This document shows positions 31,191 through 60,230 of a stretch of 64,000 bases of DNA, in pieces. The translations under genes were made by a program, and so were the position numbers. The notes under the pieces were generated by a model. It searched no databases. It had not been told where the DNA came from and was given only the letters and a program-made list of their open reading frames with translations. The stretch comes from Candidatus Poribacteria bacterium (lineage in GTDB: Bacteria; Poribacteria; WGA-4E; WGA-3G). Each line of letters starts with the position of its first letter. Position 1 is the first letter of the stretch. The DNA is taken from positions 448,001 to 512,000 of the forward strand of contig CAXXLX010000001.1 of the NCBI GenBank assembly GCA_963665235.2, given 5' to 3'.

Positions 31191-32036
31191 ATGAAAGGCC
31201 CGCCTTTATTAAACATTTTATCGCTCGGTCTAATACCGATAGTGCTCACATTGACTGTGTCCGCAGCCAACTTTGATGCAACGGACCTGGTCATCTATTA
31301 CAGTTTTGATGCGGACACACTTGTAGAATTGGACAAGGATGGGCTTGTAGAAACAGATGTTTTAGATAAGTCCGGAAATGGAAACAACGGGCTCCTTCAC
31401 GGCACAAACCTCAAAATTGTGGAAGGTAAAGTGAATGAATGTCTAGAGCTGCCAGGGGCAGCAGCCGAATATGTAGCGGTGAGAAATCTCAATTATGTGG
31501 AAGGAATCCCTGAACTTAGCATGGCTGCTTGGATTAAGACTTCACAAAGAGGCATAATTGCCTCCTGGGACCGCAGCGAATTTTTCCGGTTCGGCGCAGG
31601 CGACGACCAACTCGGAAATACCACCTTTGTCGCCTTTGACATTTGCTGCCCTATACGCGACTGGCACGGAGAAGTCGAAGTTACAGATGACCAATGGCAT
31701 CATGTCGCTGTAACGTTTGATGCTGAAACAAAGCGGATATACGTCGACGGCGAATTGGATATGGAAGCACCGACACACACAAATAATAAACTAATCGGAC
31801 CGAGGGCACAACGGTACGGATTTATCGGCGTTGGCTCAGAAGCAGCCACTTTCGGAGGGCCCCCGGGGCCCACGAACTGGGCTTACAAAGGTTTGATAGA
31901 TGAGTTTCTCTTATTCCATCGAGCACTCTCTGAAGATGAGGTTACGCGCCTTGCCAAAGCCCGTGGGAACCCCTTCGCTGTCGAACCGGACAGCAAATTG
32001 AGCACAACCTGGGCAGAAATTAAAAACGTCAGATAG
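31191..32036 (+). CDS. Secreted LamG/ConA-like protein with C-terminal TTWAEIK tail
   Basis: Signal peptide, WHHVAVTFD, IYVDG, GLIDEF, tail AVEPDSKLSTTWAEIK. Confidence 0.85.
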   Translation: MKGPPLLNILSLGLIPIVLTLTVSAANFDATDLVIYYSFDADTLVELDKDGLVETDVLDKSGNGNNGLLHGTNLKIVEGKVNECLELPGAAAEYVAVRNLNYVEGIPELSMAAWIKTSQRGIIASWDRSEFFRFGAGDDQLGNTTFVAFDICCPIRDWHGEVEVTDDQWHHVAVTFDAETKRIYVDGELDMEAPTHTNNKLIGPRAQRYGFIGVGSEAATFGGPPGPTNWAYKGLIDEFLLFHRALSEDEVTRLAKARGNPFAVEPDSKLSTTWAEIKNVR

Positions 32037-55404: not shown

Positions 55405-55467
55405 AAATTTTACGCTTTTAAAAAAAGGTTGACAACTGTCGAAATTTAAGATATGATGTCATTGTAA

Positions 55468-55951
55468 TACCATTTCTAATTGAAAATGTCTCTTTATTGT
55501 AGCATAAACTTCCAGTTTGTGCCTTGTAGCATAAACTTCCAGTTTGTGCCTTGTAGCATAAACTTCCAGTTTGTGCCTTGTAGCATAAACTTCCCTTGTA
55601 GCATAAACTTCCAGTTTGTGCCTTGTAGCATAAACTTCCAGTTTGTGCCTTGTAGCATAAACTTCCAGTTTGTGCCTTGTAGCATAAACTTCCAGTTTGT
55701 GCCTTGTAGCATAAACTTCCAGTTTGTGCCTTGTAGCATAAACTTCCAGTTTGTGCCTTGTAGCATAAACTTCCAGTTTGTGCCTTGTAGCATAAACAGT
55801 TTGTGCCTTGTAGCATAAACTTCCAGTTTGTGCCTTGTAGCATAAACTTCCAGTTTGTGCGTTATTGTAGCATAAACTTTTAGTTTGGGTCTTCCGTTCT
55901 CCGTTTCATTTCTAACAACCGGTAATGATAGAATAATTAATAAAAATGGTA
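55468..55951. mobile_element. Family C MITE with 15 REP units (27-bp period)
   Basis: Both TIRs, TAA flanks, two internally deleted units, degenerate last unit. Confidence 0.88.
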
Positions 55952-55991
55952 TAAGTAAACTGTAAGAGTATGTCAGAATTTTAAAAAAAAG

Positions 55992-56020
55992 TTGACAATT
56001 TTCGAAATTTAAGATATAAT
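55992..56020 (+). promoter_or_regulatory. Consensus sigma70 promoter
   Basis: TTGACA-17-TATAAT; homologous copies at 58796-58824 and ~55429-55457 (TATGAT). Confidence 0.8.
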
Positions 56021-56045
56021 GTCCTTGTAAATCATACTTTTATTT

Positions 56046-56552
56046 GGGGTTTGACAATGAAAAACCGACAAGCACAATCGCTATTGAGAAAAGAACGTAG
56101 TAGATGCCTTCGAGCTAGGCAGGATTGTCCGCGCAGAATACCTATCGGTTTCTACATTAACTTTCCGTTAAACCCCCCCCTTAATAAATTTTCTTATTTG
56201 TTAATTATTTTACGTCGTATTGCAGGATTTAAAATCTGCGATATTTCGCGCCCGCACGTACTTCGTCCACGACGAAGTGTACAGTTGCGGGCTTTTGTTG
56301 TTGCATCGGAGTGTACTTCCGTTCCGCATCTGTACCGTGCGTGACAGCGGAATATAATAGGACAGTACACATCGAACAAAACAAATTTAAGGTCTCTGTC
56401 CATTAAACTGTCTGATATAACAGTGTTTAAGGAACTTGATAGTTCACGTAATACTGTTCAATTAGATAACCGAGACCTAATTTACGACACCTTGGAACCG
56501 AGGGAAATCTGTAAATCCCTTTGTGTACCAAAACTATAAGGAGAAATTCTAA
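56046..56552 (+). ncRNA. Candidate structured 5' leader RNA, copy 1
   Basis: Homologous to 58884-59384; GGGGTTTGAC pairs with GTTAAACCCC; ends in RBS AAGGAGA. Confidence 0.5.
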
Positions 56553-57002
56553 GTCAATAACCCCCCGCTAAAGCGTGGGGGCTTGTCCAAGATGGTAGCC
56601 ACCCTGTAACTTGGGTGAGGGCAACTTATTGACTACCGTAATATATCGCGATATCGAGGCGTGGCAGCCTCAACGTATCCATTAAAACGCTATAGTCAAG
56701 TGGTAGTTTCTATAGCTAGGTCCTGCTCCCCAAGGGTTGGGTTCATGCGGGTATCGTGATCGGGATGGGGCAATATACACTCCGAAAGGAGACTTACCTG
56801 TTTTCTCAAAGATACCGTGTCAGGTCAAGTAAACAGAAAGTGCGAGTTCTGTTGAACGAAGCAGCACAGTTTGCGAGGAGCGCCTACGGGAAACTTGTGG
56901 CGAAAAAACAACCCGACTCCCCTTTGGGGGAAATCTAAAACGAATAGGAGCGGTGTTTCCTCCCCCGCATAAATGCTGGGGGTTTCCACACCGAATATTT
57001 TG
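56553..57002 (+). mobile_element. HEARO/IscB omegaRNA-like non-autonomous element
   Basis: Starts GTCAATAACCCCCCGCTAAAGCGTGGGGGCTTG, ends TTTCCTCCCCCGCATAAATGCTGGGGGTTTCC...TTG|ATGA; absent from the paralogous leader. Confidence 0.78.
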
Positions 57003-57698
57003 ATGAAAATTATGTTAGTATTAGCAGGATTTATGTTGATGATAGCCTTTGTTATTATCAGCACAAGCGACATGGTATGGGCGGAGGAAGTCTTGGGAAC
57101 AGGAACCGGCTCACTGATAGGCGGCGACCTAACCGACCCAGAAGACGATGGTCAACCTGAAACAGATGACGGTTACAACGCTGTTTTCACAGCCAACGAA
57201 GAACCCGGTTTCGGGGGCGGGGAATCTGCGTTTAACGTCTTCGATAACCGCCTTGGCCCCGGCAATGACAAATGGTGCTGCGGACGTGGCGGCGGCATTC
57301 CGGACGAAGGTCTACACGTGACAGCTGAATTTGACGAGCCGTACGCATTGACACACTTCACCGTATCCTCAGCGAACGATGTTCCTAATAGGGACCCTAC
57401 AGAATGGGAAATTCAGGGGTCGAACGACGGCAAAGAATTCACGACCATCTTTTCTCACAAGGGGGATAGCTTCTGGGATCAGCGACTGCAAGTCGTCCTT
57501 TTTAAGGCTGGAAAAGATTACGACGTTCAAAAAATCGGGTACAAGTTTTTCCGGCATGTTACTTTTAACACCGCAGCGAACCCGGCTGGAGCGTACTTTC
57601 AAATTGGCGAAATAGAGTACTTCGGCGATGATAGTTATCCCGTAGACCCTAGAACCAAGCTCACAACCACATGGGGAAGCATCAAAAACGCCCGATAA
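57003..57698 (+). CDS. Secreted discoidin/F5-8-like protein with TTWGSIK tail
   Basis: Signal peptide, SANDVPNRDPTEWEIQGSNDG, QIGEIEY. Confidence 0.8.
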   Translation: MKIMLVLAGFMLMIAFVIISTSDMVWAEEVLGTGTGSLIGGDLTDPEDDGQPETDDGYNAVFTANEEPGFGGGESAFNVFDNRLGPGNDKWCCGRGGGIPDEGLHVTAEFDEPYALTHFTVSSANDVPNRDPTEWEIQGSNDGKEFTTIFSHKGDSFWDQRLQVVLFKAGKDYDVQKIGYKFFRHVTFNTAANPAGAYFQIGEIEYFGDDSYPVDPRTKLTTTWGSIKNAR

Positions 57699-57932
57699 GC
57701 ACAAATATCTGACATTTCTAAATCGGCTTGAATCCAGTAATAACTGGGTTTAAGCCGATTTCCACACAGGTGTCCAATCAGAAACACCCACACTCGGCAT
57801 TAGACTATTTGACACCTATCGAATTTCAACGACAAAACTGCACAAACATTAATAAAGATTGGTATGGTAATGGGTGCAGTTTATTCAAACTCACGTAAAA
57901 GTGAGATTCATTTCTATAGGAGATGGCACATT

Positions 57933-58631
57933 ATGAAAATTATGTTAGTATTAGCAGGATTTGTGTTGATGATAGGCTTTCTTGTTATCGGCACAAGCGA
58001 CATGGCATGGGCAGAGGAAGTCTTGGGAACAGGAACAGCCTCGCTGCTAGGAGGTGACCTAACCGACCCAGAAGACGATGGTAGTCCCGATGCAGACGAA
58101 GGTTACAACGCCATTTTCACAGCCAATGAAGAACCCGGTTTCGGGGGCGGCGAATTTTCCTTTAACGTCTTTGATAACCGCCTTGGCGGCGGCAATGACA
58201 AATGGTGCTGCGGACGTGGTGGCGGCATTCCGGACGAAGGCCTACACATAACAGCTGAACTTGAAGATCCGTATGTATTGACACACTTCACCGTATCCTC
58301 AGCGAACGATGTTCCCGCAAGAGACCCTACAGAATGGGAAGTTCAGGGCTCGAACGACGGCGAAGACTTTACGACCATCTTTTCTCACTCCGGGGATAGC
58401 TTTTGGACTGCGCGACTGCAAGTCGTCCTTTTTGAGGCTGGAAAAGATTACGACGCTCAAACCACCGCGTATCGGTTTTTTCGGCATGTTACCTTTAACA
58501 CCGCATCGAACCCAGCTGGAGCGTACTTTCAAATTGGCGAAATTGAATACTTCGGCGCTGATAGTTCGACCGCTGTAGACGCTAAAGCCAAGCTCACAAC
58601 CACATGGGGAAGCATCAAAAACGCCCGATAA
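57933..58631 (+). CDS. Tandem paralog of the upstream discoidin-like protein
   Basis: Highly similar sequence, RBS AGGAG, same tail. Confidence 0.8.
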   Translation: MKIMLVLAGFVLMIGFLVIGTSDMAWAEEVLGTGTASLLGGDLTDPEDDGSPDADEGYNAIFTANEEPGFGGGEFSFNVFDNRLGGGNDKWCCGRGGGIPDEGLHITAELEDPYVLTHFTVSSANDVPARDPTEWEVQGSNDGEDFTTIFSHSGDSFWTARLQVVLFEAGKDYDAQTTAYRFFRHVTFNTASNPAGAYFQIGEIEYFGADSSTAVDAKAKLTTTWGSIKNAR

Positions 58632-58653
58632 GCACAAATATCTAACACTTCCT

Positions 58654-58698
58654 AAAACGGCTTGAATCCAGTAATAACTGGGTTTAAGCCGTTTTTTT
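58654..58698 (+). terminator. Intrinsic terminator
   Basis: CGGCTTGAATCCAGT-aata-ACTGGGTTTAAGCCG plus T tract; the paralogous hairpin at ~57724-57760 lacks the long T tract. Confidence 0.75.
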
Positions 58699-58795
58699 AT
58701 ATCCACTTGAAACCGTGAGGGTGAAAACTTTTTTCAAACTCGCGTTTTTGATAAATAAATCGTCCGGCTGAAAATTTGACGATTTCAAAAAAAGG

Positions 58796-58824
58796 TTGAC
58801 AACTGCCGAAATTTAAGATATAAT
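58796..58824 (+). promoter_or_regulatory. Consensus sigma70 promoter
   Basis: TTGACA-17-TATAAT. Confidence 0.8.
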
Positions 58825-58883
58825 GTCTTTGTAAATTGTATGAGCGGAAAACTTTGTTACCGCATATCTCATTTTTCATATCC

Positions 58884-59384
58884 GGGGTTTGACAATGCAA
58901 AACCGACAAGCGACATCACTATCCAGAAATGAACGCAATAGATGCCTTCGAGCTAGGCAGGATTGTCCGCGCAGGGTGCCTATTGATTTTAGCGTATCGT
59001 TAAACCCCCCCCTTAATAAATTTTCTTACTCGTTAATTATTTTACGTATCGCAGGATTTAAAATCTGTGATATTTCGCGCCCGCACGTCCTTACGTCCTT
59101 CGTCTATCACGAAGTACTTGCGGGCTTTTGTTATTGCATTGGAGCGTACTTCTGTTCCGCATCCGTACCATGCGTGCCAGCGGGATATAATAGGACAGTA
59201 CGCCTCGAACGAAACAAATCCAAGGTCTCTGTCCATTAAACTGTCTGATATAACAGTGTTTAAGAAACTTGATGGTTCACGTAATACTGCTCAAGTAGGT
59301 AACCGAGACCTAATTTACGACACTCTGGAACCGAGGGGAATCTGTAAATCCCTTCGTGTACCAAAACTATAAGGAGAAATCTAA
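58884..59384 (+). ncRNA. Candidate structured 5' leader RNA, copy 2
   Basis: Homologous to 56046-56552; leads directly to ATG 59385. Confidence 0.5.
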
Positions 59385-60230
59385 ATGAATTTCAAAGCTA
59401 TAAAAGTGGTTTGTATCCTCAGCCTCTTACTTACCTCTATTTGGTACGTAAACGCGGTTGATGCACAACTTGATGAAAACACAGTTGCTGGCATGTGGAC
59501 CTTTGAAGAAGGTGAAGGCACAGTCGTCAAAGACCTCTCCGGTAATGGAACCGATGGAGCGTTTGTTGGTAGCTTAGAATGGGTCGATGCCAAATTCGGT
59601 GGTGGGTTAAAGTTTGATGGCACAAACACTTGGATTAAACTCGGAACAAAAGGTGATGCGGATAGTTTAGCGGCTTTGCAAGTTAAGGATTTAGCAGGGT
59701 TCTCTGTCCACGCCTGGGTCTATTCGGAAGTAGCTCCAACTGGCAAATGCGTTGTTTGGAAAGGCCTTGGGTGTTCAACCTGGTCACAGTTCCGTCTGGG
59801 AACAGGTTCTCACGAAAACGGGGACAACAGTACAAAGGCATCGTTTCACATCCGAGCTGGAAACGGCGGTGCTAGGCTTGAAGTTCTCGGTGATGACCTG
59901 CCTGCTGGAGAATGGCTGCATCTCGTTGGCACCTGGGACGGAACCAAAAATCACATCTACGTCAACGGCGAACTCCAAGCATCCGCAGATGCATCACAAC
60001 CCCCTTGGGCATCCCCTGAAGAGGTCTACATCGGGGCCGACCCTGGCTGCGGTAAGCGGGGACAGTGGAACGGTATCATGGACGAAGTCGCTATCTTTAA
60101 CGTAGCACTCTCAGCCGAGCAGGTTGCAGAGCTCGGGCAAGGTCTTGACGCTGCTTTAGGAAGAGCCACACCGGTTGACCCCATCGGGAAAACAGCAACA
60201 ACCTGGGGCAAACTCAAAAATAGGAAGTAA
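59385..60230 (+). CDS. Secreted LamG-like protein with TTWGKLK tail
   Basis: WTFEEG, WLHLVGTWDG, IYVNG, GIMDEV. Confidence 0.85.
   Translation: MNFKAIKVVCILSLLLTSIWYVNAVDAQLDENTVAGMWTFEEGEGTVVKDLSGNGTDGAFVGSLEWVDAKFGGGLKFDGTNTWIKLGTKGDADSLAALQVKDLAGFSVHAWVYSEVAPTGKCVVWKGLGCSTWSQFRLGTGSHENGDNSTKASFHIRAGNGGARLEVLGDDLPAGEWLHLVGTWDGTKNHIYVNGELQASADASQPPWASPEEVYIGADPGCGKRGQWNGIMDEVAIFNVALSAEQVAELGQGLDAALGRATPVDPIGKTATTWGKLKNRK

Follow-up and report, generated by a model that had tools for sequence, protein, structure and literature searches.

The window analyzed here, a 64,000-nucleotide stretch of contig CAXXLX010000001.1 from a Candidatus Poribacteria bacterium, contained two related leader regions on the forward strand, designated copy A (positions 56046 to 56552) and copy B (58884 to 59384). 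Each was preceded by a perfect TTGACA-N17-TATAAT promoter that matched the sigma-70 consensus at 12 of 12 positions (+ strand; 55992 to 56020 for copy A and 58796 to 58824 for copy B), and the two promoter regions were identical at 50 of 58 positions. Pairwise alignment of the copies gave 86% identity over 501 nt, with a mean column identity of 88% over the whole alignment and 80 to 90% identity across stretches. The segment from 56046 to 56180 was identical to copy B at 110 of 135 positions (6 gap columns), that from 56181 to 56305 at 107 of 133 positions (15 gap columns), and that from 56306 to 56552 at 223 of 247 positions (gap free). The duplicated promoter and the homology of the two regions, both part of the original prediction for this DNA, were confirmed by these comparisons. 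A LamG-type gene started directly behind copy B, at 59385. Copy A had been described as standing in front of a discoidin gene pair, which it did only indirectly, as a 420-nt repeat element (56553 to 56972) separated its ribosome-binding site from the discoidin gene.

Copy A began with a Shine-Dalgarno-like G-run (56046 to 56049, +) located 7 nt upstream of the start of a short open reading frame (uORF) and forming the 5' arm of a helix with a C tract. The uORF of copy A (56057 to 56344, +; 95 codons plus stop) extended through a hairpin (H3) and a terminator-like hairpin and was assigned to the long state, as was the uORF of copy B (58895 to 59239, +; 114 codons plus stop). The C tracts (56173 to 56180 and 59005 to 59012, +) were C8 in both copies; that of copy A read N-P-P-L in the uORF frame and had a mini-hairpin, TTAAC-N5-GTTAA (56157 to 56171, +), just 5' of it. 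Hairpin H3 was found at 56218 to 56243 (+) in copy A (−10.0 kcal/mol, z = −3.86) and at 59047 to 59072 (+) in copy B (−10.2 kcal/mol, z = −4.64), with two pairs that differed between the copies while pairing was kept (U.G and G-C in copy A; C-G and G.U in copy B). The terminator-like hairpin of copy A, with its CUUUUGUUGUU tail, occupied 56250 to 56302 (+; −23.9 kcal/mol, z = −2.75), and its counterpart with U tract in copy B occupied 59079 to 59135 (+; −19.0 kcal/mol, z = −2.37). Both terminator folds ended in a U-rich tail, with U tracts at 56293 to 56302 and 59126 to 59135, and with predicted energies of −19 to −24 kcal/mol, these hairpins are putative intrinsic terminators; that of copy A went without a call by a simple scanner because the stem was bulged. 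Hairpin H5 (CGGAG/UUCCG) was predicted 3' of the U tract, at 56307 to 56321 (+) in copy A.

Four pairings named in the original prediction were all located at matching places in the two copies. These were GGGG/CCCC (A, 56046 with 56173 to 56180; B, 58884 with 59005 to 59012), TGCCT/AGGCA (A, 56105/56117; B, 58943/58955), GGACAG/CTGTCC (A, 56360/56396; B, 59193/59229), and ACTGT/ACAGT (A, 56407/56420; B, 59240/59253). The helix between the G-run and the C tract, GGGGUUUGAC/GUUAAACCCC, was present in the minimum-free-energy fold of both copies. The C tract and the putative terminator within the leader, which are its key features, had gone unnamed. Indels were also said to preserve the ORF frame, which was the case for the 6-nt and 3-nt indels but not for an 8-nt indel in the terminator stem, which breaks it.

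On sequence comparison with further copies, the 500-nt leader of A and B is a composite. It is conserved as a whole between A and B, but the element common to the family comprises only the initial ∼290 nt (about 56046 to 56325 in copy A), and the remaining ∼230 nt are private to A and B. The private part of copy A is a gene-specific 5' untranslated region (56322 to 56552, +) that ends in the ribosome-binding site AAGGAG (56538 to 56543), had no further copy in the genome besides B, and contained no promoter-like site on the + strand. In copy B, H5 and the corresponding untranslated region spanned 59136 to 59384 (+), with AAGGAG at 59371 to 59376, and the fold of the second half (59141 to 59400) was unremarkable (z = −1.54). 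The GGACAG and ACTGT pairings lie in this private part and are therefore without comparative support.

A search with nhmmer recovered 25 copies of the family element in the genome, the same count as that obtained with a covariance model (R1); a strict-pattern scan of a collection of genome contigs recovered only 3 loci. Model R1, which gave more than 650 matches overall, detected the element in all 6 genera of this Poribacteria family, with 97 of the 111 further genomes positive. Across a sample of the phylum, 84 of 99 genomes of its own family carried the element, and none of 51 genomes drawn from eight other families did. The copies are old and diverged (about 60 to 75% identical), and the best explanation for A and B is that both belong to a leader cassette confined to this one family and were duplicated recently. 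The order of elements was promoter, G-run, short ORF starting with ATG or GTG, C tract, AU-rich box, hairpin, terminator hairpin with U tract, second hairpin, and gene. No match to Rfam 15 at an E value of ≤1 was obtained on 56046 to 56552 or 58884 to 59384, and no match reached the gathering score anywhere in the whole window or in 10 loci with other copies. Outside the leader, a near-match to JA03 (58641 to 58877; 41.1 bits against a gathering score of 44) covered promoter B together with the second discoidin gene's terminator and was judged to be due to chance. A HEARO match (29.4 bits against a gathering score of 83) was located on the inserted repeat (56553 to 56778), off the leader. The original proposal was thus borne out in part: the leader lacks an earlier description, it contains a short ORF and hairpins that are conserved, many further copies exist, and it belongs to no Rfam family. 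Literature searches on the Poribacteria-1 motif, on Poribacteria and phase variation, and on homopolymeric tracts with leader peptides and terminators returned nothing relevant. In sponge-symbiont Poribacteria, each genome holds about 25 copies of this newly recognized cassette, placed ahead of exported-protein genes.

Comparative evidence for structure was strongest in the 3' part of the element. RNAalifold on plain MAFFT alignments gave no or almost no structure because helices were out of register, and these alignments were replaced by a hand-drawn structure with covariance model realignment. In the alignment fitted to the model, 89% of cells in the 3' part were paired, compared to 30 to 47% with slid partners, and 24 of 31 pairs had changed on both sides; 0 of 500 shuffles reached the observed value. 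Within the same fitted alignment, the family helix of H3 was 88% paired, those of the terminator were 87 to 95% paired (with changes on both sides in 14 of 17 pairs), and family helix 4, corresponding to H5 beyond the U tract, was 89% paired. The mini-hairpin was 79.8% paired in an alignment made independently of the structure, and the 5' domain showed weak covariation (74.5% paired, with 4 to 50 of 500 shuffles reaching the observed measures).

Exactly one frame of at least 35 codons beginning with ATG or GTG entered the C tract in 108 of 123 copies, compared to 14% of shuffles. Start codons were ATG in 93 copies and GTG in 23, and a Shine-Dalgarno-like 4-mer lay upstream of the start codon in 92 of 116 family copies. 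The C tract ranged from 5 to 34 nt in length across the family and contributed proline codons whatever the frame; it was followed by an AU-rich, G-poor box. Behind the tract, one frame (the S frame) reached a stop after about 4 codons. The mean number of stops per 50 codons behind the tract was 2.50 in the S frame and 0.66 and 0.39 in the other two, while unused frames of the uORF body contained 2.2 to 2.6 stops per 33 codons. The two non-S frames had 4- to 9-fold fewer stops and reached past the terminator. In 56% of 52 copies, but in only 3.5% of shuffles, two frames contained no stop for 50 codons or more. The S frame reached the U tract in 0% of 119 copies and the other two frames in 75% and 85%; at least one frame did so in 100%. 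All 33 long uORFs with a located U tract ended beyond it (median, 78 nt), as did those of A and B. In 79 short-state copies, the uORF did not overlap the terminator, although the other two frames extended past it; the short-state stop lay about 100 nt upstream of the terminator. One closed frame alongside two that stay open across the terminator, all downstream of a C tract of variable length, is a pattern not readily accounted for unless more than one frame is translated.

Tract length differed in 33 of 39 pairs of copies with flanks at least 88% identical, a count to be read with the caution that homopolymer lengths in assemblies can be wrong, and the short or long state differed in 12 of these pairs. 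Gain or loss of one C in A or B would place a stop 0 or 7 codons behind the tract. DNA contigs, in which minor variants are invisible, showed C8 at copy A in runs X1 and X5 and C8 at copy B in run X1, with no difference. In its own genome, the long state was found in 9 of 9 copies before TTWG-tail genes and the short state in 15 of 15 copies before other called genes. Among relatives, there were 4 long and 2 short copies before tail genes and 10 long and 43 short copies before others. The tracking of state with gene class argues against free phase switching.

A co-oriented ORF of at least 100 amino acids lay within 500 nt of 117 of 125 copies. Hydrophobic N termini were present in 96 of these 117 downstream ORFs, compared to 1,125 of 4,336 background ORFs (26%). 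The leader had been viewed as a device of TTWG-tail genes, a view that was not sustained, since of the genome's roughly 100 TTWG-tail ORFs only 11, along with 4 second genes, carried it, and most copies stood before genes for different exported or membrane proteins. An RNA-library contig spanned 56101 to 56502 across the terminator; it came from a related strain (19 mismatches and 6 gaps), and DNA carry-over is possible.

We infer from this anatomy how the leader would be transcribed, translated, terminated, and regulated. The reading that we favor, at a probability of roughly one-half, is that of a translation-coupled transcription attenuator in which the frame being read at the C tract would act as the gate. 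A strong promoter would produce the leader RNA, and a ribosome would load at the G-rich Shine-Dalgarno-like site and read the uORF into the C run, which encodes proline in each frame. In the S frame, the ribosome would meet a stop about 4 codons on, roughly 100 nt short of the strong putative terminator; in either of the two stop-free frames, it would be carried over H3, the terminator, and H5. A ribosome trailing RNA polymerase over the terminator would block the hairpin and allow transcription of the exported-protein gene, and a stopped or stalled ribosome would leave the terminator free to act. The length of the fast-evolving C tract would set the frame, and the tract could also slow ribosomes (through polyproline and EF-P) or allow slippage of ribosomes or polymerase. 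Copies A and B have C8 and the read-through frame and lack a second promoter, and expression of their genes would therefore be expected to rely on read-through. It is possible, though doubtful, that such attenuators operate genome-wide, with a hypermutable, slippery C tract in the leader ORF choosing between one frame that stops before the terminator and two stop-free frames that cross it. Three routes to frame choice are then conceivable: slippage of the DNA (phase variation), slippage of the polymerase, and a +1 shift of tRNA-Pro under limiting EF-P or m1G37. A literature search recovered no paper on the combination of frame choice, a variable C tract, and a terminator.

At the pyrBI (pyrL) and pyrE attenuators of Escherichia coli, termination is suppressed when ribosomes translate a leader or upstream ORF across an intrinsic terminator; the rph-1 frameshift, which reduces pyrE expression, is the textbook example of a premature stop in the upstream ORF. 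The Poribacteria leader resembles these systems in that a short ORF overlaps the leader terminator before the putatively regulated gene (in A, B, and the 33 long-state copies as a group) and in that a premature stop would release the terminator. It differs in having no evident link to nucleotide pools or UTP-sensitive pausing, in occurring as about 25 paralogous copies per genome before exported-protein genes, in having an ORF that stops before the terminator in two-thirds of copies, and in carrying a homopolymeric C tract that would decide the frame, with two alternative frames open. Phase-variable contingency loci include the poly-G/C tracts of Campylobacter, Neisseria, and Haemophilus and the C stretch in Bordetella fim promoters. 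As in those loci, the homopolymer has at least 8 bases and is of different length in close relatives, gain or loss of a single base shifts the reading frame, and the bacterium lives in association with a host, its surface or exported proteins being the products of the genes concerned. Unlike in those loci, the tract lies in a leader ORF and neither within the gene nor between promoter hexamers, termination is proposed as the output in place of protein truncation, and the state correlates with gene class. A C run is the most slippery tRNA-Pro context known, and the +1 shift at CCC-C is restrained by m1G37 and EF-P, according to the available text of PMC7577736 and PMC4519876. The Poribacteria leader offers such a run. 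We know of no programmed use of the tRNA-Pro +1 shift to control a terminator.

An alternative, considered unlikely, is that the element is a separate small transcription unit of about 250 to 300 nt, an sRNA (perhaps a dual-function one) equipped with both a promoter and a terminator, that acts in trans (for example, through pairing of its C-rich stretch with G-rich ribosome-binding sites) and merely adjoins exported-protein genes. The strong terminator inside the element would suit such a unit, as would an upstream promoter matching at least 10 of 12 consensus positions in 50% of 114 copies (8% of shuffles). A promoter match of at least 10 of 12 was also found between terminator and gene in 39% of 116 copies (4% of shuffles), so the element could be a separate transcription unit there. 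This second promoter tended to be more common in the short state (32 of 75 copies) than in the long state (7 of 30), a trend only (Fisher's exact test, P = 0.08). Neither A nor B had a promoter-like site between terminator and gene, and the fixed orientation and the closeness of the downstream gene in nearly all copies, together with conservation of H5 beyond the U tract, argue for a role in cis. An open uORF and depletion of stops in two frames across the terminator would be needless for a pure sRNA, and a trans-acting RNA with a single seed would not ordinarily exist as 25 diverged paralogues in one genome.

Somewhat less probable still is an attenuator that senses proline or EF-P, of the mgtP or polyproline type and free of frame switching, in which the C tract is kept only for PP(P) and a stall uncouples translation or exposes C-rich, G-poor RNA to Rho. 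Proline is encoded in any frame, PPP or PPPP occurred in most short-state uORFs, and the AU-rich, G-poor box follows the tract. Like mgtP of Salmonella mgtCBR and like EF-P-dependent coupling, the leader has consecutive proline codons in an ORF upstream of a terminator; the Poribacteria codons differ from the mgtP type in forming a pure C run of variable length. To our knowledge, no member of the proline-codon leader ORF systems is a multicopy family. Precedents are provided by mgtP (PMC3641672) and by EF-P-dependent coupling at rut sites and the pyrL terminator (PMC5021804), as far as the available text of these sources extends. In that of PMC5021804, which describes pyrL and cites Roland et al. 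1988, termination rises in the absence of EF-P when a PPPPPP motif precedes the pyrL terminator inside an ORF; this synthetic reporter has nearly the layout of the long-state copies and is also a precedent for the attenuator that we favor. A proline sensor would leave unexplained why two frames are stop free for more than 40 codons behind the tract and why tract length ranges so widely. The tract of A and B encodes only two prolines, a weak stalling motif. Because some 100 nt separate the short-state stop from the terminator, stalling in these copies would have to work through an alternative pairing; mgtP uses alternative stem-loops, but no antiterminator pairing was seen in single-sequence folds of the Poribacteria leader. 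The weak motif and the missing pairing also count against the attenuator that we favor.

A mobile or selfish MITE-like repeat, or a duplicated intergenic region lacking a function of its own, is very improbable. The element is multicopy in a MITE-rich genome, with one such repeat adjoining upstream at 55470 to 55975 and the 420-nt repeat directly downstream of copy A, but old, diverged copies across six genera keep the ORF, compensated hairpins, terminator, and position before genes, and their orientation relative to the neighboring gene is fixed.

That the uORF encodes a functional small protein of about 45 to 60 amino acids is hardly credible: the start codon and Shine-Dalgarno-like site are conserved and M-[KRQ]-N-R (N-terminal) and NYKLT-PPP-LHIR (C-terminal) motifs recur, but differences by codon position (291/258/294) showed no third-position excess, 135 synonymous changes stood against 547 nonsynonymous ones, the conserved box ACCACAATTCAGAAA was read in different frames in two subgroups, reading continued in another frame behind the tract in 35 of 116 copies, and nine uORF peptides, those of A and B included, had no Pfam match at an E value of ≤1. 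An early impression of N-terminal synonymous changes disappeared on counting. The conserved leader peptide once considered, for which a dN/dS check had been suggested, fails on the same codon counts; judging from them, the open frame is conserved while its amino acids appear to drift neutrally.

The frame-gated attenuator that we favor would add a new, lineage-wide cis-regulatory element to a phylum that resists cultivation. It links the leader to exported and surface proteins (LamG, discoidin, and others), those likeliest to touch the sponge host or phages. If the reading is true, reading-frame choice, by mutation or slippage, would be the control input of an attenuator, and the Poribacteria leader would be the natural counterpart of the synthetic polyproline-terminator reporter used to demonstrate that coupling of transcription to translation is maintained by EF-P. 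On the more doubtful genome-wide view, it is the reading frame, and neither a metabolite nor a protein, that would switch each of about 25 exported-protein genes in a sponge symbiont, which would constitute a new class of regulatory switch.

The leaders at window positions 56046 to 56552 (copy A, before the discoidin genes) and 58884 to 59384 (copy B, before a LamG-type gene) are homologous, as the original prediction had held: pairwise alignment gave 86% identity over 501 nt, with a mean column identity of 88% over the whole alignment. Identical columns numbered 50 of 58 in the promoter region (no gap columns), 110 of 135 across 56046 to 56180 (6 gap columns), 107 of 133 across 56181 to 56305 (15 gap columns), and 223 of 247 across 56306 to 56552 (no gap columns). 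A perfect TTGACA-17-TATAAT promoter lies upstream of each copy (55992 to 56020 for A and 58796 to 58824 for B), and all four proposed pairings were found in both. Copy B ends with AAGGAG (59371 to 59376), followed by the ATG of the LamG-type gene at 59385, and the identical AAGGAG of copy A (56538 to 56543) is followed by a 420-nt repeat element and then the first discoidin gene. Blastn found no other genomic copy of the latter part of the shared leader (from about 56322), which is a private 5' untranslated region of this duplicated pair. A 34-nt insertion (58838 to 58871) between promoter B and the G-run of copy B carries a small hairpin (GCGG...CCGC) that copy A lacks. A subthreshold Rfam match to the Aggregatibacter sRNA JA03 at 58641 to 58877 (41.1 bits versus a gathering score of 44) is probably due to chance; the matched stretch runs from the second discoidin gene's terminator through promoter B.

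The 420-nt noncoding repeat (56553 to 56972) is an insertion that precisely separates the leader A ribosome-binding site from the discoidin gene. The genome carries seven further copies of at least 290 nt (67 to 92% identical), along with shorter pieces, and the first 226 nt of this repeat weakly matched HEARO (RF02033; 29.4 bits versus a gathering score of 83). The discoidin-type genes at 56973 to 57698 and 57864 to 58631 are a tandem duplication, with 300 nt at 89% identity. Public sequencing runs were compared as contigs only. An RNA-library contig from run X7, representing a related strain, links 56547 to 57933 through 8 other nucleotides, so leader A in that strain appears to lie directly before a single discoidin gene. 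The repeat and the extra discoidin copy, both missing from this contig, would be secondary in the window's genome. Promoter A lies directly 3' of a MITE-like element (55470 to 55975), within which tandemly arrayed 27-nt units precede a conserved 70-nt tail (more than 1,000 and 167 short-blast matches in the genome for unit and tail, respectively). A third promoter copy (11/12 match, 55429 to 55457) lies just 5' of that element, so that duplicate promoter regions flank the insertion.

Across copies, an upstream promoter (at least a 10/12 match in the 220 nt searched; 50% of 114 copies versus 8% of shuffles) precedes a G-run, GGGG(A) or AAGGTGA, located about 5 to 9 bases (in copies read by eye) 5' of a conserved ATG/GTG. 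There follow a structured upstream open reading frame (uORF) body of about 105 to 160 nt, a mini-hairpin (TTAAC-N5-GTTAA), a C tract, an AU-rich box (consensus TTCACATTCGTTAATTATTT), hairpin H3, a long GC-rich hairpin (the predicted terminator) and then CTTTTGTTGTT, hairpin H5, and a variable spacer; the called gene start lies a median of 138 nt past the element end. The predicted folds of the terminator hairpin were -23.9 kcal/mol (z, -2.75) in copy A and -19.0 kcal/mol (z, -2.37) in copy B.

Searches for further copies with blastn in the window's genome retrieved diverged pieces of the leader's first half only, and iterated nhmmer retrieved 25 copies (E below 1e-20). A covariance model of the family (R1), covering the C tract to H5 (174 positions, 31 pairs), recovered all 25 of these copies and one further, marginal match. 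Of the 111 other genomes searched in this Poribacteria family, R1 matched 97 (genera g2, 3/3; g3, 33/40; g4, 1/1; g5, 1/2; g6, 59/65), with several copies in most of them when at most 24 candidates per genome were scored. In a phylum-wide sample, R1 matched 84 of 99 genomes of this family and none of the 51 searched from eight other families. Rfam 15 yielded no family for the A/B leader at an E value of ≤1, nor any on the leader at gathering score when the window and ten other copies were scanned. Four near-identical copies in genome G000 (contig C1, 887103 to 887478, 821536 to 821916, and 2587001 to 2587366; contig C2, 327442 to 327814) form a subfamily set apart by its 5' domain and its uORF (MQVKKMQKMHH...) but retaining the same logic: a uORF entering the C tract, a stop 1 to 5 codons later, H3, the terminator, and H5.

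In an alignment of 50 copies that was fitted to R1, and so favors the following figures, 89% of cells were paired (30 to 47% with slid partners), 24 of the 31 pairs were changed on both sides, and 0 of 500 shuffles matched these values. When the 5' domain was aligned without fitting to structure, 74.5% of cells were paired versus 38 to 52% with slid partners and covariation was weak, so the proposed GGGG/CCCC and TGCCT/AGGCA helices are plausible, with modest support.

Among 134 copies gathered, 125 were analyzable for the uORF. In 113, a single frame had an ATG/GTG ORF of at least 30 codons that entered the C tract (more than one frame in 3, none in 9); starts were ATG in 93 and GTG in 23, and 92 of 116 copies carried a Shine-Dalgarno-like 4-mer upstream. 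The leader ORF of the original prediction stood as a frame kept open (108 of 123 copies at a 35-codon threshold versus 14% of dinucleotide shuffles) but not as a conserved peptide. In 55 equal-length pairs at 2 to 20% divergence, differences at codon positions 1, 2, and 3 numbered 291, 258, and 294, and 547 changed codons were nonsynonymous versus 135 synonymous. The reading frame of one conserved nucleotide box differs between two subgroups, and nine uORF peptides had no Pfam match at an E value of ≤1. An open frame with a drifting peptide therefore suggests that selection acts on translation of the frame and not on its product.

The C tract, 5 to 34 C in length (modes, 10 and 8), encodes proline whichever frame is used. 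Very long tracts (34, 21, and 21 C) occurred in the leader ORFs of relatives at loci L135 (G033 C1:132441-133862), L098, and L189. In 79 of 116 copies the uORF stopped within 8 codons of the tract (short state; typically ...NYKLT-PPPP-LHIR-stop), in 35 it continued for at least 30 codons (long state), and 2 were intermediate. Behind the tract, the early-stop frame averaged 2.50 stops per 50 codons and the other two 0.66 and 0.39, whereas within the uORF body the two frames not in use had 2.2 to 2.6 stops per 33 codons. Of 52 copies, 56% had two frames without a stop for 50 codons or more; the corresponding values were 3.5% for shuffles and 8% for the reverse strand. The terminator U tract, ending a median of 119 nt past the C tract, was reached by the short frame in 0% of 119 copies, by the others in 75% and 85%, and by at least one frame in 100%; all 33 of 33 long-state uORFs ended beyond it (median, 78 nt). 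In typical short-state copies, gain or loss of one C shifts the ribosome into a terminator-crossing frame. In A and B the frames after the tract are 7, 0, and 53 or 74 codons long; the frame in use is the sole long one, and a change of one C brings a stop 0 or 7 codons past the tract.

Tract length, a comparison in which homopolymer errors of assembly are possible, was unequal in 33 of 39 close pairs (flank identity of 88% or more across 250 nt or more), and 12 of these 33 differed in state; one gap-free pair at 96.3% identity had C9 (long) and C5 (short). In DNA contigs, copy A was C8 in both X1 and X5, runs from two studies, and copy B was C8 in X1. In the window's genome, genes for proteins with a C-terminal TTWG tail had 9 long and 0 short leaders, and other called genes had 0 long and 15 short; in relatives, the counts were 4 and 2 versus 10 and 43. 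Because state tracks gene class in this way, free switching is argued against. An X8 metatranscriptome contig, which represents a related strain and differs by 19 mismatches and 6 gaps, covers 56101 to 56502, from within the uORF through the C tract, H3, and the terminator to beyond H5. Its extent is compatible with read-through and falls short of proving transcription.

In 117 of 125 copies, an ORF in the same orientation and at least 100 amino acids long began -70 to +500 nt from the element end, and by a crude predictor 96 of these 117 had a hydrophobic N-terminal segment, versus 1,125 of 4,336 genomic ORFs of at least 150 amino acids. Recurrent families were TTWG-tail proteins (LamG, discoidin, and others), a membrane protein of about 150 amino acids, and several signal peptide families. 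The element is not restricted to TTWG-tail genes: of about 100 such ORFs in the genome, 11 had the element within 800 nt upstream and 4 more were second genes of a pair. Another ORF with a TTWG-like tail lies at 31191 to 32036 (the figure of about 100 comes from a crude scan). A promoter-like site (at least 10/12) between terminator and gene occurred in 39% of 116 copies versus 4% of shuffles, in 32 of 75 short-state versus 7 of 30 long-state copies (P = 0.08), and in neither A nor B. Such second promoters would suit the main rival reading, a separate sRNA-like unit, which we consider unlikely, since it accounts neither for the open uORF, nor for the lack of stops in frames crossing the terminator, nor for the fixed placement before genes.

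We instead favor, at roughly even odds (about 0.5), a translation-coupled attenuator whose input would be how fast, and in which frame, the ribosome reads the C tract. This proposal draws on parallels in layout and behavior. In long-state copies a ribosome-binding site precedes an ORF that contains both the prolines and a predicted intrinsic terminator, a layout shared with the pyrL attenuator and with a synthetic PPPPPP-pyrL reporter in which termination rises on loss of EF-P (PMC5021804). Likewise, mgtP is a proline-codon leader ORF controlling attenuation (PMC3641672), and tRNA-Pro lacking m1G37 is reported to undergo +1 slippage at CCC-C (PMC7577736, PMC4519876). The frame may be set by fixed tract length alone, by phase variation, or by slippage in transcription or translation.

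No paper on such an element was found in the literature. Leader ORFs, terminators, homopolymer tracts, and polyproline are each known components; to our knowledge, their combination in a multicopy family, with two terminator-crossing open frames, before exported-protein genes of a sponge symbiont is undescribed. If frame switching proves true, the element would represent a new class of regulator.
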